64,000 bases of DNA from positions 32,001 through 96,000 of the forward strand of contig JAWLHY010000011.1 in NCBI GenBank assembly GCA_041690135.1. The letters are read 5' to 3'. The notes under the pieces are model-generated. The model searched no databases. It saw only the letters and a program-made list of their open reading frames with translations, and was not told the origin of the DNA. Source of the stretch: Armatimonadota bacterium. GTDB lineage: Bacteria > Armatimonadota > SYMT01. Both the position numbers and the translations under genes were made by a program. Shown here one piece after another: positions 1 to 46,899 of the stretch. Within the stretch, counting starts at the first letter, position 1. The number at the start of each line of letters is the position of its first letter.

Positions 1-830
1 CAGTCGCTGATCACCATCTTCACCCCCACGAAAGCAAGCACCAGGCCGAGGCCCACCTTGAGGTACCGGAACTTGTCCACCACGTCGGCCAGCAGGAAGT
101 AGAGCGCCCGCAGCCCGAGGATGGCGAAGATGTTTGAGGTGAAGACGATGAACGGGTCCGGCGTAACCGCGAAGATCGCCGGAATGCTGTCCACCGCGAA
201 GATCACGTCCGTCGTCTCGACCGCCAGCAGCACCAGGAACAGGGGCGTGGCGTGGCGGCGGCCATCCACGTTCACAAAGAACCGGCTGCCGTGGTACTCG
301 GGCACGGTCGGCATGAAGCGCCGGAAGAGACGGATCATCGGGTTGTCTTCCGGATGCACCTCCTCGTGCTTCTGGGTCAGGATCTTGATACCCGTGTAGA
401 TCAGGAAGCCGCCGAAGACGAAGATGATCCAGTGGAACTGGTGAAGCAGCGCCGCGCCGACCCCAATGAAGATCGCGCGCAAGATGATCGCCCCCAGTAC
501 GCCCCAGAACAGGACCCGGTGCTGGTACTCCGCCGGAACGGAGAAGAACGAGAAGATGACCAGGAAAACGAAGATGTTGTCGACGCTCAGCGCCTTCTCG
601 ATCAGGTAACCGGTCAGGAACTCCAGTGCCTTCTGCGGCCCGAACCAGAAGTACACGCCCACGTTGAAGAGCAGTGCTACGCTGACCCAGATAACGCTCC
701 AGGTGGCTGCCTCGCGCACGCCAACGGCATGCGGCCGGCGGTGCAGCACGCCCAGGTCCAGCGCCAGCATCGCCAGGATCATGGCGATAAATCCACCCCA
801 CAGCCAGGGGGAACCAACCGACTCCGGCAT
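1..830 (-). CDS. TerC/Alx family membrane protein (Mn2+ homeostasis), 3' end truncated by window edge
   Basis: Not in the ORF track; read manually on the minus strand from ATG 830 (RBS GGAGGAGG): MPESVGSPWLWGGFIAMILAMLALDLGVLHRRPH...LEFLTGYLIEKALSVDNIFVFLVIFSFFSVPAEYQHRVLFWGVLGAIILRAIFI...DVIFAVDSIPAIFAVT, classic TerC motifs. Confidence 0.95.
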   Translation of the reverse strand, partial: MPESVGSPWLWGGFIAMILAMLALDLGVLHRRPHAVGVREAATWSVIWVSVALLFNVGVYFWFGPQKALEFLTGYLIEKALSVDNIFVFLVIFSFFSVPAEYQHRVLFWGVLGAIILRAIFIGVGAALLHQFHWIIFVFGGFLIYTGIKILTQKHEEVHPEDNPMIRLFRRFMPTVPEYHGSRFFVNVDGRRHATPLFLVLLAVETTDVIFAVDSIPAIFAVTPDPFIVFTSNIFAILGLRALYFLLADVVDKFRYLKVGLGLVLAFVGVKMVISD

Positions 831-42969: not shown

Positions 42970-43815
42970 ATGAAGCTGTCTGGTTCCCCTCGGTCTCGCG
43001 GGTTCACCCTGATCGAGCTGCTCGTGGTGATAGCCATTATTGCTATTCTTGCGTCGATACTCTTCCCGGTTTTTGCCCAGGCCCGCGAGAAGGCCCGGCA
43101 GACGAGTTGCACGAGCAACCTCAAGCAGATCGGCATGGCCGTATTGATGTACAGCCAGGATGCGGACGAGATGCTGCCGCTAGGCGCATATAACCCTCCG
43201 GGTCAACCGGTGCAGATGTGGTACGACCTGGTGGAGCCTTATGCCCGGGCCGGCGCGCGGGCCGTGAACCAGAACGGGGTGAATGCGCAGCGGGCCGCCG
43301 CGCCGTTCTGGATCTGCCCCAGCGTGGAGAACCGCAGCGTGCCGCTGGTGGGGGGCGAAACGGCGCCCGGGCCGTTCCCGGCGAACAACTTCTCACCCGC
43401 CTTCAGCTACATGGCCAACGCCAACGTCATGCCGTTCTGGCACCGGGGCTTCGCCAGCTTCGGCCATTTCCCCGGCCGGCCAACTGCCCTGGCCGCCCTG
43501 GGCGCCCCCGCGCAGGTGGTGCTGGCCTGTGAGGGGTTGGGCTATATCAACGGCACCGGCGGGGACGACTGGACCACCGGCTGCGACCAGCGGGAGAGCG
43601 GCTACGCGCCGGTGACCGGGCCCACTAACGGCATGGCGGCCATCTACTGCGGCGCTCGTTACCGCCACAGCGGCGGGGCCAACTACCTCCTGGCGGACGG
43701 GCACGTGAAGTGGTTCCGCGGTCCCGGCAACTCCTGGCGCACGCGAGCCACCTCGGGCGTCGCCTGGTCGAAGGTGCTGGCCCCAACGGCCGTGGCCTGG
43801 TTCAAGGAGAACTGA
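42970..43815 (+). CDS. DUF1559 prepilin-type / H-X9-DG protein
   Basis: [34 protein letters not shown]; [17 protein letters not shown]. Confidence 0.93.
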
Positions 43816-43818
43816 GCG

Positions 43819-44778
43819 ATGCACGCCTTGACCGCACTCACGCTTGCGGGGCTGTTGGTCGCGCCGGGAGCGGCTCCGGCGGGTAGCGCCACCGTGGTCT
43901 CCACCGGCCAGAAGGTGACCCTCCCGCAGCACCGCGTGCCCGAACAGCCGACGGTCTTCGTCTTCCTCCGTCCTTCCAGCAGCCTGGAACGGAGCTTCCT
44001 GGAGGGCCTCCGCAAGGAAGCCGGCCCGAAGGTGGGCCTCCGGGAAGTGCACCTGAAGAGCGGGGAAGAGCCGATCGCCCGGCAATACGAGATCGGCTCG
44101 ACCCCCGCGGCCCTGGTCTACGACCGCCGGGGTCGGTTCGTGGGGAGATCCGCGGAGGCGGACGAGATCGCGGCGATGGTTCGGAAGGCTGCCGGAGTGA
44201 TGCGGATCGACTGGGCCGAACCCGGCGACCCTCGCCTCGCGGAGATGGAGAAGATCCTGGGGCGGCCCGTCAACTCCGGGATCATGCGGACGATGAGCCT
44301 GCGCCCCGACTGGCTGCGGCAGATCCACGAACTCCACAGCCTGGCGCACCGCCCCGATACGGCGCTGGACCGCCGCACCAAGGAGATGATCGCCACCTAC
44401 GTCTCCGCGCTCAACAAGTGCAAATTTTGAGTGAGCGCGCATGCGCATAACCTGCAGTTGCAGGGACAAAACCAGAAGGATGTGGATGAGATCGGCCAGG
44501 GGCGGTCCGAAAAGGCGGCCCTGACCGAACGCGAGCAGGCCCTGCTCGACTACGTGAAAGTGCTCACCCTGGAGCCGGCCAAGGTCCGGGACGCACTGGT
44601 GGAGCGGATGCGACGGACGGGCTGGACGGACGAGCAGATCTTCGAGGCCAGCTTCATCACGGCGCTCTTCGCCTTTTACAACCGGATGGCGGATGCCTAC
44701 GGGCTGGACTACAACCCCCGGCGCTGGGTGCCGCCCGCCCTCCGCGGCCCCTCGGGTTCCAAGCCAGGCCGTCCATAG
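43819..44778 (+). CDS. Predicted selenoprotein (319 aa, Sec204): signal peptide + thioredoxin-like domain + AhpD/CMD-family peroxidase-related domain (CxxU)
   Basis: ORFs 43819-44430 and 44431-44778 are in the same frame, separated only by TGA 44428-30; read-through gives EMIATYVSALNKCKF-U-VSAH, matching the AhpD-like NxCxxCxxxH motif; the downstream half is the CMD C-terminus. Confidence 0.88.
44431..44466 (+). promoter_or_regulatory. Putative bacterial SECIS element
   Basis: CCTGC-AGTT-GCAGG hairpin (44451-44464), loop 25 nt after the UGA with G at loop position 2. Confidence 0.65.
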
Positions 44779-44792
44779 GGATGGCCTGGCTT
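44761..44792 (+). terminator. Strong hairpin over the stop codon (terminator or RNA stabiliser)
   Basis: AAGCCAGGCCGTCC-ATAG-GGATGGCCTGGCTT; weak U tract. Confidence 0.5.
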
Positions 44793-44883
44793 GGGTCACG
44801 GGCTGGGTTCACCCGCCCTGACGTAATCGCTGTCGCAAAGATTTCTCACAATACGGTGGCCCTCGCCGCGATAAGATACCGGG

Positions 44884-45663
44884 ATGTGGTCTGATTCCCT
44901 CCTGGTCTTCTTCGCGGCGATGGCCGCCGGTGCGGTCAACTCCGTGGCGGGCGGCGGCACGCTGCTTACCTTCCCCGCTCTCCTGGCGACCGGGCAGCTC
45001 GCCCTCGTCGCTAACGCCACCAGCACCGTGGCCCTCTGCCCCGGTTCCGCCAGCAGTTGGTGGGGCTACCGCCACGAGATCGGCGGGAACCGGCACGCCG
45101 TACTGCCGATGCTGGTCCTCGGCGTGGCGGGCGGCATCACCGGATCAGCGCTGCTGCTCGTTACTCCAGCCCCGCTGTTCGACCGGATCGTGCCGTACCT
45201 GATCCTGGCGGCCACGCTCCTCTTCATTGCGCAGGAGCCGCTCTCCCGCTGGCTGCGCTCGCGCAGCGGAGAGGCGGCGAAGGACGACGAGGAGCACGTC
45301 CACCTCCGGCTCACCCCACCCATGCTGGTCGCGGTTTTCGGGACCGCCGTCTATGGCGGCTACTTCGGAGCGGGGATCGGCATCATCACCCTGGCGGTGC
45401 TCGGCCTGATGGGGTTGCGCAATATCCATCAGATGAATGCGCTGAAGAATGTCTACGCCCTGGCGACCAACGCGGTGGCCGCGGCGATCTTCATCAGCCG
45501 GGGCCTCGTGGACTGGAAGGTCGCGCTGCTCATGGCGTGCGGCGCGCTGTTCGGGGGCTACGCGGGCGCGGGTATTGCACGGAAGATCGGGCAGAAGAAC
45601 GTCCGCCGCATCGTCATCGGCATCGGGCTCCTTCTCACCGCCTCCATGCTGGTGCGCGGCTGA
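44884..45663 (+). CDS. TauE/SafE (TSUP, DUF81) family permease
   Basis: AGAVNSVAGGGTLLTFPAL, ANATST, YGGYFGAGIG, MNALKN. Confidence 0.93.
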   Translation: MWSDSLLVFFAAMAAGAVNSVAGGGTLLTFPALLATGQLALVANATSTVALCPGSASSWWGYRHEIGGNRHAVLPMLVLGVAGGITGSALLLVTPAPLFDRIVPYLILAATLLFIAQEPLSRWLRSRSGEAAKDDEEHVHLRLTPPMLVAVFGTAVYGGYFGAGIGIITLAVLGLMGLRNIHQMNALKNVYALATNAVAAAIFISRGLVDWKVALLMACGALFGGYAGAGIARKIGQKNVRRIVIGIGLLLTASMLVRG

Positions 45664-45681
45664 TTCGGTAACAACTGCTCC

Positions 45682-46899
45682 TCATGGGGTGGGGTAAAGC
45701 GCCCGGAGCGCGAAGCGGTACGTCAGCCACACGGACCGGACAAACTCCCGGGGGTCTTGCCCTTTTTCCAGGGGAAGGCTATGGCCCAGGGCGGGGGGAA
45801 GGAGCAACTCCCCACGGGCGTCCGGCGGAAGCGCATCCCAGAGTCGCAGCGCCTCGCTGGGGGGAACGAACCGGTCGTCCCGGGCATGGAAGACGAAGGT
45901 GCGGGCCTCTATCTCATGTAGTTTGCCGACCGGGCTGAGCGCGTCCACCTGGGAGCGCAGGCGGGGCGAGAGTTCCGCGTAGAGCCGCGCGAACCGCTCC
46001 GGGTCCTGGTTCAAATAGAGCGCCGCCAGCTTCCGGCCTTCCGGCGACAGTCCTTCCGGAACCCTCTCCGCCCGTTCCTCCACGACCTTCCGCAGCAGGG
46101 GGCGGTCCTCGGGCGCCGCCCACGCCACCAGCGTGCGGCCCAGCATGCTCCGGATGTACGGGCTCGGTTCGCGCTGTCCGGTTACGAGCCCGTACCCGTA
46201 GGTGCCGGTCGTCGCGTAGCGGAAGACCTGGGAAAGATCCGCGTACCCGCCCAGGATCACGTATCGCGAAGGTCGCAACTTGGGAGGAAGCTCCGTGGCC
46301 GCCAGCAGGAGGGGACCGCTGCCGTAGCTGAGCCCCCCACCGATGCTCCGCGCCGGGTCCAGCTCCGGCAATGTCATGAACTGCCGAAGGCTGGTGCGGG
46401 CGTCCGCAATATCCTCAACGGACAGGTGGGAGATCTGCTCGCCCGCGGGAAAGGGGACCATCGTCACGTAACCCAACCGGGCAAAGGACCGGGCGGCGCG
46501 GATCACGCCCGGGTTCCGGAGACCTTGCCGGGAAGCGGGGGTCAGCAGCAGGATCCCCGGGCGACGCTCCCCGGTTCCGCCAATCCCGCCCGGCACATAG
46601 ACGTCCGCCACCATGCGTCGCCCGCTCTCCGAGGGGTAGTCGATCCGCCGCACCTCCGGGGGCGGCGCGGTGAGTGCCTGGGGATTGGGCCAGCCTTCCG
46701 GCCGGGCCAGGGCGAGCATGAACAGGAAGACCCGGCCGGAAAACGTCGTCAGCCAGAGGAGCGTCAGCAGCAGCCCGCCCGCCGCGACCAGCGCCAGGCG
46801 TTTCCCCCACCGCCTCCACCCGCGCGACCGCCACGCATCCGCCGGAATGGGTTGACGGCCGGGATTCTGCATTTCACCAGGAGAACGAATAATTGCCAC
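45682..46899 (-). CDS. Membrane-anchored alpha/beta hydrolase
   Basis: GLSYGSG nucleophile elbow, FHARDDRFVP, GHS; N-terminal TM. Confidence 0.8.
   Translation of the reverse strand: MAIIRSPGEMQNPGRQPIPADAWRSRGWRRWGKRLALVAAGGLLLTLLWLTTFSGRVFLFMLALARPEGWPNPQALTAPPPEVRRIDYPSESGRRMVADVYVPGGIGGTGERRPGILLLTPASRQGLRNPGVIRAARSFARLGYVTMVPFPAGEQISHLSVEDIADARTSLRQFMTLPELDPARSIGGGLSYGSGPLLLAATELPPKLRPSRYVILGGYADLSQVFRYATTGTYGYGLVTGQREPSPYIRSMLGRTLVAWAAPEDRPLLRKVVEERAERVPEGLSPEGRKLAALYLNQDPERFARLYAELSPRLRSQVDALSPVGKLHEIEARTFVFHARDDRFVPPSEALRLWDALPPDARGELLLPPALGHSLPLEKGQDPREFVRSVWLTYRFALRALYPTP

Follow-up and report, generated by a model that had tools for sequence, protein, structure and literature searches.

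A predicted exported selenoprotein of Armatimonadota with a cysteine-less thioredoxin fold joined to an AhpD-like CxxU domain

The window analysed in this study, a stretch of 64,000 nucleotides from an Armatimonadota bacterium (GenBank assembly GCA_041690135.1, contig JAWLHY010000011.1, positions 32,001 to 96,000 of the forward strand), contains a gene of 319 codons at 43819-44778 (+), interrupted in frame by a TGA at 44428-44430. We consider it likely that 43819-44778 is one gene and that its product is an exported redox enzyme of 319 residues, a selenoprotein in which a thioredoxin-fold domain with an S-x-x-E motif precedes an AhpD-like domain with a C-x-x-U motif, where U is selenocysteine (Sec). 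The components of this reading differ in strength. That the gene encodes a selenoprotein is well-founded; the profile score and the motif place it in the AhpD-like selenoprotein family, in which its domain architecture is new. As judged from the predicted structure and from profile alignments, the N-terminal domain is a true thioredoxin fold in which S54 and E57 replace both active-site cysteines. Decoding of the TGA as Sec is supported by the Sec machinery of the genome, by the pairing of Sec and Cys forms and by a conserved hairpin that resembles a selenocysteine insertion sequence (SECIS). The protein is probably exported across the cytoplasmic membrane.

The gene is composed of two open reading frames (ORFs), 43819-44430 (203 amino acids) and 44431-44778 (115 amino acids), which adjoin in a common frame at the TGA. 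This arrangement had been pointed out in a preliminary description of the stretch and can be read directly from it. Translation across the TGA gives a protein of 319 residues with the segment ...SALNKCKFUVSAHAH..., which includes C201, U204 and H208. The Pfam model CMD matched residues 163-225 (E = 8e-12), on both sides of U204, and the NCBIfam model TIGR01926, 'peroxidase-related enzyme', matched residues 153-299 with 97.5 bits against a cut-off of 81.8. Since both matches cross residue 204, a single domain spans the TGA. No AGGAGG-type site was seen before the downstream ORF part of the gene. Both results agree with the preliminary description, according to which the downstream part has no ribosome-binding site (RBS) and completes the CMD fold. 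In 10 of the 28 Sec-form orthologs, which are described below, the codon after the TGA is CTG, GTC, ACA or ACG, and not ATG, GTG or TTG.

The conservation of the TGA was analyzed in a phylum sample of 401 genomes, taken as Armatimonadota by their record names, with a match threshold of E <= 1e-40. Full-length matches were obtained in 28 of the 401 genomes, at 34 listed matching places; 30 of these contain a single TGA and the other 4 lack it. The gene-by-gene reading took in 32 of these 34 places, in 30 fetched loci, the remaining two places having no locus. Among the 32 family genes, 28 carry TGA and 4 carry a Cys codon, all in one column of the motif N-x-C-x-x-[U/C]-x-x-[A/G/S]-H. The alignment of homologs at position 204, suggested in the preliminary description, thus showed that the TGA is not unique to one strain. 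In an earlier search of 61 genomes, including the source genome, a full-length homolog with one TGA was present in each of the six other genomes of the same family. Two more copies with one TGA each are present in the source genome itself, the first full-length (61% identity) and the other a stand-alone copy with CMD only. Tandem pairs of a Cys copy with a Sec copy occur in two genomes.

The database relatives show the same column. The 120 best of them comprise 98 that end exactly at N-x-C-x-x (a number that includes the two truncated ORFs of the window itself), 21 that continue with Cys and 1 that continues with Gly. A full-length relative with Gly at the Sec/Cys column (C-R-Y-G), be it as a real variant or through an error, is P0035. 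The protein alignment of 12 sequences has 53 invariant columns, of which 29 lie after U204; E189, C201, U204 and H208 are invariant in all 12. Six member-bearing records (L071, L073, L074, L083, L088 and L089) are titled as metagenome-assembled genomes of Actinomycetes, Actinomycetota or Planctomycetales, possibly a matter of labelling, and all other records with a full-length member are Armatimonadota.

A hairpin with a G-containing loop downstream of the TGA had been proposed to fit the bacterial SECIS consensus, and comparison of the orthologs bore this out. In the window, the loop of the hairpin begins 25 nucleotides past the TGA. All 28 Sec forms have a hairpin on the 3' side of the TGA with a loop of 3-6 nucleotides that contains GU (AGUU, AGUUG, GGUC, GUU or GUUGCA), and a GU-loop hairpin was not found in any of the 4 Cys forms. 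Bacterial SECIS elements are stated to have in common a small apical loop that contains a guanosine (PMC1088965). The hairpin occurs in three forms. In alignment A2, 15 sequences combine the stem of the window with the loop AGUU (AGUUG in L024), and 7 sequences combine this stem with GGUC. The remaining six, which are more distant, have the hairpin 8 nucleotides nearer to the TGA; five of them have a stem of up to 8 bp and the loop GUU, with one internal mismatch in three of the five, and the sixth (L063) has a 5-bp stem and the loop GUUGCA.

In a 22-sequence alignment, 89% of the cells of the 7-pair stem were paired, against 34-62% when the partners were slid. A stem pair changed from C-G to U-A in two sequences through two synonymous substitutions (CTG to TTG and CAG to CAA). 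All 15 of the Leu codons that give the loop its U-U are TTG; elsewhere in the same 28 genes, TTG accounts for 79 of 714 Leu codons (11%). Because the sequences are kin, these comparison figures should not be taken as independent trials. In the Cys form at locus L052, CUGC-AAAU-GCAG is kept at the SECIS place, with no GU in the loop. It looks like the remnant of a former Sec form.

The source genome (9.1 Mb in 25 contigs, 97% complete) was searched for the Sec machinery, the presence of which the preliminary description had left to be checked. All of its parts were found. The genes selB (383.6 bits), selA (566.6 bits) and selD (369.6 bits) scored over their cut-offs, as did the tRNA-Sec gene selC (67.2 bits), which ARAGORN called as tRNA-SeC with the anticodon tca. 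The selD gene of this genome itself has one in-frame TGA. The selA, selD and tRNA-Sec genes form one cluster on contig 1 (G000:C1:1149453-1152359, G000 being the source genome), followed by a tRNA-Ala gene, and selB is located on a separate contig (G000:C8:51343-53220).

Two other accounts of the TGA were rejected. A reassigned genetic code is ruled out, since TGA is the true stop of the upstream gene and of several orthologs and is thus a normal stop elsewhere in these organisms. Read-through of the in-frame TGA of the upstream gene into the gene at 43819-44778 is ruled out as well; the orthologs use TAA or TAG at that place. In the sequencing runs, no listed piece bridges 44428-44430, and the shares of sampled words of all matching runs were at most 0.11. 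Three metatranscriptome runs and one probable DNA run gave contigs on both sides of the TGA (for example 44046-44395 and 44482-44708); RNA libraries may contain DNA, and such run coverage says nothing on transcription across the TGA.

The structure of the protein was predicted with AlphaFold from a 12-sequence alignment (mean predicted local distance difference test score (pLDDT) 82.7, predicted template modelling score (pTM) 0.59). In the model, residues 45-125 are arranged as beta-alpha-beta-alpha-beta-beta-alpha with a pLDDT of ~90. In a Foldseek search, this N-terminal domain was matched by the thioredoxins 2j23, 6z7o, 2ipa and 2puk (E from 5e-4 to 1e-3, template modelling (TM) score 0.60-0.64 on the target). 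No Pfam model reached its cut-off on this domain (Thioredoxin_2, 12.1 bits against 27), and NCBIfam gave no match to it. The relationship was further seen in an hhalign comparison with P0176, a protein of 242 residues with the motif WCGPC (probability 97.9, E = 4e-13, 40% identity over 96 columns). In the register of this alignment, S53-S54-S55-L56-E57 falls on W-C-G-P-C of P0176 and P96 falls on the Pro of its S-I-P. P96 is invariant in the family alignment and occupies the cis-Pro position in hhalign. The mature N-terminal domain of the 319-residue protein has no Cys, and the C-x-x-C active site is absent from it. The preliminary description had named TVFVFLRPSSSLE in place of WCxxC and a cis-Pro-like TP, as well as a Cys-less thioredoxin-like domain; the alignment to P0176 confirms the former, and for the latter the model gives a thioredoxin fold with which Foldseek and the profile alignment agree. 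Since both active-site Cys are replaced (S54 and E57), this domain would be unable itself to carry out thiol-disulfide exchange.

A profile of 31 N-terminal domains was compared with 1.84 billion representatives, and matched 183 proteins at E <= 1e-3, 39 at E <= 1e-10 and 9 at E <= 1e-30. When 10 of the matches were scanned with Pfam, 8 contained Thioredoxin (PF00085), in some cases in arrays of up to nine repeats; of the other two, one is a member of the present family with CMD and one has a sub-threshold Redoxin match only. Very long proteins were also seen among the matches (P0135, P0150 and P0153), with up to nine tandem thioredoxin-type domains and, in one case, 1741 residues.

The C-terminal domain adopts an all-helical AhpD fold in the model, with a pLDDT above 90 over most of residues 181-280. 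Foldseek matched it to 6k40, 2prr and 2oyo at probability 1.00, with TM scores of 0.71-0.76 on the target (0.76 for 6k40) and 27-30% identity, and a search of the PDB with a 12-member family profile gave 2prr and 6k40 at E ~1e-25. The match of this profile to Mycobacterium tuberculosis AhpD is gapless, with profile positions 193-227 against chain residues 118-152 and a profile offset of 4. In this register E189, C201, U204 and H208 fall on Glu118, Cys130, Cys133 and His137 of M. tuberculosis AhpD. These four residues are named as the proton relay of AhpD in a passage of PMC3141380, and the relay residues are reported as invariant in deinococcal AhpDs in a passage of PMC6300522. The register, together with the TIGR01926 score and the Foldseek matches, upholds both the AhpD/CMD identity given in the preliminary description and its placement of the TGA on the second Cys of the AhpD-type CxxC with the next His kept. 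Stand-alone homologs start at the equivalent of R129-I-D-W, and the fusion point is therefore placed just before residue 127.

The stand-alone copy in the source genome, a third AhpD-like gene with an in-frame TGA, is located at G000:C7:400171-400719 (-) (locus L044); it encodes 189 residues with C-P-Y-U and lacks a signal peptide. Forms like it with CFYU, found in other families of the phylum (L032-L038), have a SECIS stem of 7 bp, with a change from C-G to U-A in one sequence.

Residues 1-24 of the protein are hydrophobic, and the pLDDT of the model is below 50 at residues 1-20. In several families the N-termini of orthologs have an n-region with Lys or Arg, a hydrophobic core and an A-x-A site (VHA-QT, ASA-QS, ALA-QS and AQA-DA, with the hyphen at the site). 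A crude rule for export (a Kyte-Doolittle mean of at least 1.9 over a 10-residue segment of the N-terminal 25 residues, and a domain preceded by no fewer than 18 residues) was passed by 98 of the 120 best relatives; in 8 the extension was too short, and 14 fell outside the rule. P0007 and P0098, both outside it, have twin-arginine-like RRxFL starts, and one of them is a Cys form and the other is truncated at the Sec codon. As for the signal peptide and extracytoplasmic location claimed in the preliminary description, the hydrophobic start and the signal peptides of the orthologs favour them, as far as such heuristics go, whereas the claim does not extend to the Armatimonas-type lineages, which have no signal peptide. 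The source genome has a DsbD_TM-family gene (99.5 bits), and a periplasmic supply of reducing power is therefore plausible, nothing more.

A possible mechanism may be outlined as follows. SelB with Sec-tRNA(Sec) would read the UGA at 44428-44430 as selenocysteine, directed by the hairpin at 44451-44464, which would show G-U in its apical loop. The predicted N-terminal signal peptide would lead to export across the cytoplasmic membrane. The selenolate of U204, in the place of Cys133 of M. tuberculosis AhpD, may then attack an oxidised substrate; the candidates are a peroxide and, on a partner protein, a disulfide or a sulfenic acid. C201 would resolve the adduct to give an intramolecular selenenylsulfide, and the enzyme could be recycled by a periplasmic reductant fed from a DsbD/CcdA-type membrane protein. 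The Cys-less thioredoxin-fold domain might be a module for docking or substrate recognition with no catalytic part, comparable to those thioredoxin-fold domains of protein disulfide isomerase that are redox-inactive.

The positions of the gene, its parts and its upstream neighbour are collected in Table 1.

Table 1. Features at and upstream of the gene at 43819-44778 of the window
Feature	Position	Residues	Strand	Basis
DUF1559/prepilin N-methylation/H-X9-DG pilin-like gene	42970..43815		+	Pfam SBP_bac_10 (DUF1559), N_methyl; NCBIfam TIGR04294, TIGR02532
RBS AAGGAG	43804..43809		+	9 nt 5' of ATG, read from sequence; GGAG-type sites also before ortholog starts
Signal-peptide-like N-terminus MHALTALTLAGLLVAPGAAPAGSA	43819..43890	1-24	+	hydrophobic; ortholog n-h-c regions
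Predicted thioredoxin-fold domain without Cys; S54-x-x-E57, P96, then D102-R-R-G hairpin	43891..44196	~25-126	+	model, Foldseek, hhalign
AhpD-like 'peroxidase-related' domain (TIGR01926/CMD); E189, C201, U204, H208	44197..44733	~127-305	+	profiles, Foldseek, alignment
TGA as predicted selenocysteine codon	44428..44430	U204	+	frame, ortholog Cys/TGA column, ends of database relatives
SECIS-like hairpin, stem CCUGC/GCAGG, loop AGUU	44451..44464		+	folding and ortholog comparison
TAG stop of the full-length gene	44776..44778		+	read from sequence

The stop codon of the upstream DUF1559 gene, TGA at 43813-43815, lies 3 nucleotides before the ATG of the gene at 43819. Since they are only 3 nucleotides apart, the two genes probably form one operon. 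Orthologs of the DUF1559 gene (50-85% identity) were found directly upstream and on the same strand in 12 of the 30 family loci, from four GTDB families. In the source genome a DUF1559 gene stands directly upstream of both copies of the fusion gene, the DUF1559 gene before the second copy being at G000:C1 ~157700-158500 (-). At two further family loci only distant DUF1559 genes are nearby, and some loci end too near the fusion gene for the upstream neighbour to be judged. Four Cys are invariant in the orthologs of the DUF1559 partner. The source genome has at least 110 DUF1559 matches, of which the partners are 2. When the ORFs of 53 loci were clustered, DUF1559 was the sole recurrent neighbour (21 loci, including duplicate places), besides the shadow ORFs of the gene itself. 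A complex prediction for the L050 DUF1559 ortholog and its Cys-form neighbour P0005 gave no answer (0.00 against a mark of 0.32), which speaks neither for nor against binding.

The other neighbours are not conserved beside the family. The downstream TauE/SafE gene and an alpha/beta-hydrolase-like ORF gave tblastn matches in the window's own locus only, and a pyrroloquinoline quinone (PQQ)-like propeller was matched at one other locus, with 26% identity. An 11-bp inverted repeat, CCAGGCCGTCC / GGATGGCCTGG, was seen at 44764-44789 (+), with the TAG stop of the gene in its 4-nucleotide loop and no T run after it.

Several facts weigh against the exported selenoprotein proposed here, or against single parts of it. 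Covariation in the SECIS-like stem is thin, with changes on both sides in only 2 of the 7 pairs, and the sequences compared are related and protein-coding. The fold energy of 44420-44500 alone is ordinary (z = -0.11); since it is not unusual, the hairpin is convincing only by the comparison of orthologs. A scan of 43000-46000 with Rfam (E <= 10) gave no SECIS family and only chance-level matches of the microRNA type. The match to M. tuberculosis AhpD is weak (E = 0.019), and the correspondence of residues is one of motif register. In addition, the interdomain geometry of the model is uncertain, with the pTM of 0.59, and because of this the docking role of the N-terminal domain is a guess. It might also be asked whether the TGA is a plain stop, in which case 43819-44778 would be a broken gene or two genes (203 and 115 amino acids) and only a truncated product would be made. 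Gene callers file 98 of the 120 best relatives as proteins of ~200 residues, and in the window GTG stands directly after the TGA. A plain stop, however, would cut the single CMD/TIGR01926 domain in two, and the TGA column is kept in 28 genes of many genera, and the columns of highest protein conservation lie downstream of it. Moreover, a start codon is missing after the TGA in 10 of the 28 Sec forms, the GU-loop hairpin tracks the TGA and is missing from the Cys forms, and the Sec machinery of the genome is complete. We regard a plain stop as highly improbable.

The location and the role of a genuine selenoprotein have to be weighed separately. Its N-terminus might be an uncleaved membrane anchor, or the protein might be cytoplasmic, instead of being a soluble extracytoplasmic enzyme. 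The n-region of the window's protein has no Lys or Arg and carries no positive charge, the stretch after its h-region is rich in Pro, Ala and Gly with no textbook A-x-A site, and the call of a signal peptide was made by a home-made rule and by inspection of sequences. Members of the Armatimonas type start few residues before the domain, without any signal sequence; export is therefore not universal in the fusion family, and the fusion would work in the cytoplasm too. An anchored or cytoplasmic protein is nevertheless unlikely, given that canonical n-h-c signal peptides, with Q, D or A after the A-x-A, are seen in many orthologs, that two relatives have twin-arginine-like starts, and that the conserved operon partner is a prepilin-type protein. 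Prepilin-type proteins undergo processing at the membrane and are exposed on the extracytoplasmic side. As to the role, there is a minor possibility that the enzyme acts on the upstream Cys-bearing DUF1559 protein, as its dedicated oxidase, isomerase or reductase, and does not serve general peroxide defence. The position of the DUF1559 orthologs in 12 of 30 loci from four GTDB families and before both paralogous copies in the source genome, their four invariant Cys, and the small share of the paired genes (2) among the DUF1559 matches of that genome (at least 110) are consistent with such a partnership. However, its support is adjacency alone, the kin genomes are not independent, the DUF1559 partner is not at that place in 18 of the 30 loci (in some because of a contig end), and the cytoplasmic forms have no such neighbour. 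We give little credence to a more specific version, in which the Trx(SxxE)-AhpD(CxxU) protein and the DUF1559/H-X9-DG protein would constitute a dedicated periplasmic redox module, with the N-terminal domain docking and the selenol setting the redox state of the four Cys. The exported selenoprotein, with a peroxide or an oxidised partner protein as its candidate substrate, remains the reading that we prefer.

The gene is of interest in several respects. About four-fifths of the public entries of the family (98 of the 120 best relatives) are truncated at the Sec codon and filed as hypothetical or partial CMD proteins. Recognition of the TGA as a Sec codon repairs the annotation of a phylum-wide family and enlarges the selenoproteome of Armatimonadota. 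The protein would be a naturally occurring case of a redox-dead thioredoxin fold fused to a selenol AhpD centre, apparently at work outside the cytoplasm, and natural Cys forms and cytoplasmic forms allow comparison. The DUF1559 pairing offers a starting point, open to testing, for a family whose function is unknown; if the redox module were true, it would give a first hold on the function of this very large family, which has at least 110 matches in the source genome alone.

AhpD-like proteins with CxxU were described in 2005 as a new selenoprotein family from the Sargasso Sea, with 27 sequences of COG2128 (PMC1088965). In the Global Ocean Sampling (GOS) metagenomes, AhpD-like 1, with 299 selenoproteins, was among the most abundant selenoprotein families (PMC2398784), and a 2026 review of prokaryotic selenoproteomes has the entry 'AhpD-like protein, TIGR01926, CxxU' (PMC13188914). 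The preliminary description was thus right that AhpD-like selenoproteins were already established. The window's protein resembles this family in passing the TIGR01926 cut-off, in the CxxU motif with Sec second, in having widespread Cys homologs and in the G of its small apical loop. In the available passages of these sources, however, the known family is listed as single-domain, whereas here a Cys-less thioredoxin fold of ~100 residues and a predicted signal peptide precede the AhpD-like domain. This fusion was found almost only in Armatimonadota records. The preliminary description had not recognised the architecture as described. In open-access PMC and bioRxiv texts we found no description of the thioredoxin fusion, the signal peptide, the distribution in Armatimonadota or the DUF1559 pairing, although supplements or BSepDB tables may list such forms; nor did a search there bring up a paper on selenoproteins of Armatimonadetes.

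Among proteins of solved structure, 6k40 (Deinococcus radiodurans 'alkyl hydroperoxide reductase AhpD'), 2prr and 2oyo ('uncharacterized peroxidase-related protein') have the all-helical fold in common with the C-terminal domain of the window's protein. The Glu/Cys/Cys/His relay register of M. tuberculosis AhpD (1gu9/1knc), as given in the passages on that enzyme, is kept, except that a third relay residue, His132, is Phe203 in the window's protein. Unlike this protein, the solved AhpD relatives are Cys proteins of ~180-200 residues with no N-terminal domain. A further likeness is to NF041238, AhpD_rel_CFYUT ('alkylhydroperoxidase-related (seleno)protein', the Sargasso Sea 'hypothetical protein 1'), in which an AhpD-related domain with CxxU likewise forms the C-terminal part of a longer protein. 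The NF041238 profile has 357 positions and matched over 157-337, with 62.8 bits against a cut-off of 175; membership in it is therefore ruled out.

The N-terminal domain shares with the thioredoxin superfamily (Pfam Thioredoxin and Thioredoxin_2; exported WCGPC proteins such as P0176) the fold, the strand order, the position of the cis-Pro and the D-R-R-G hairpin after beta-3. It differs in having S54 and E57 for the active-site Cys, and no Pfam or NCBIfam cut-off is reached. DsbA-like, DsbG-like and thiol-disulfide isomerase-like families are periplasmic. Proteins of these families are already listed as selenoproteins, so that in principle an exported selenoprotein would be no novelty. AhpD-like selenoproteins with CxxU, for their part, have long been known and are abundant, and it is therefore only the fusion and the export signal that would make the protein of this window unusual.

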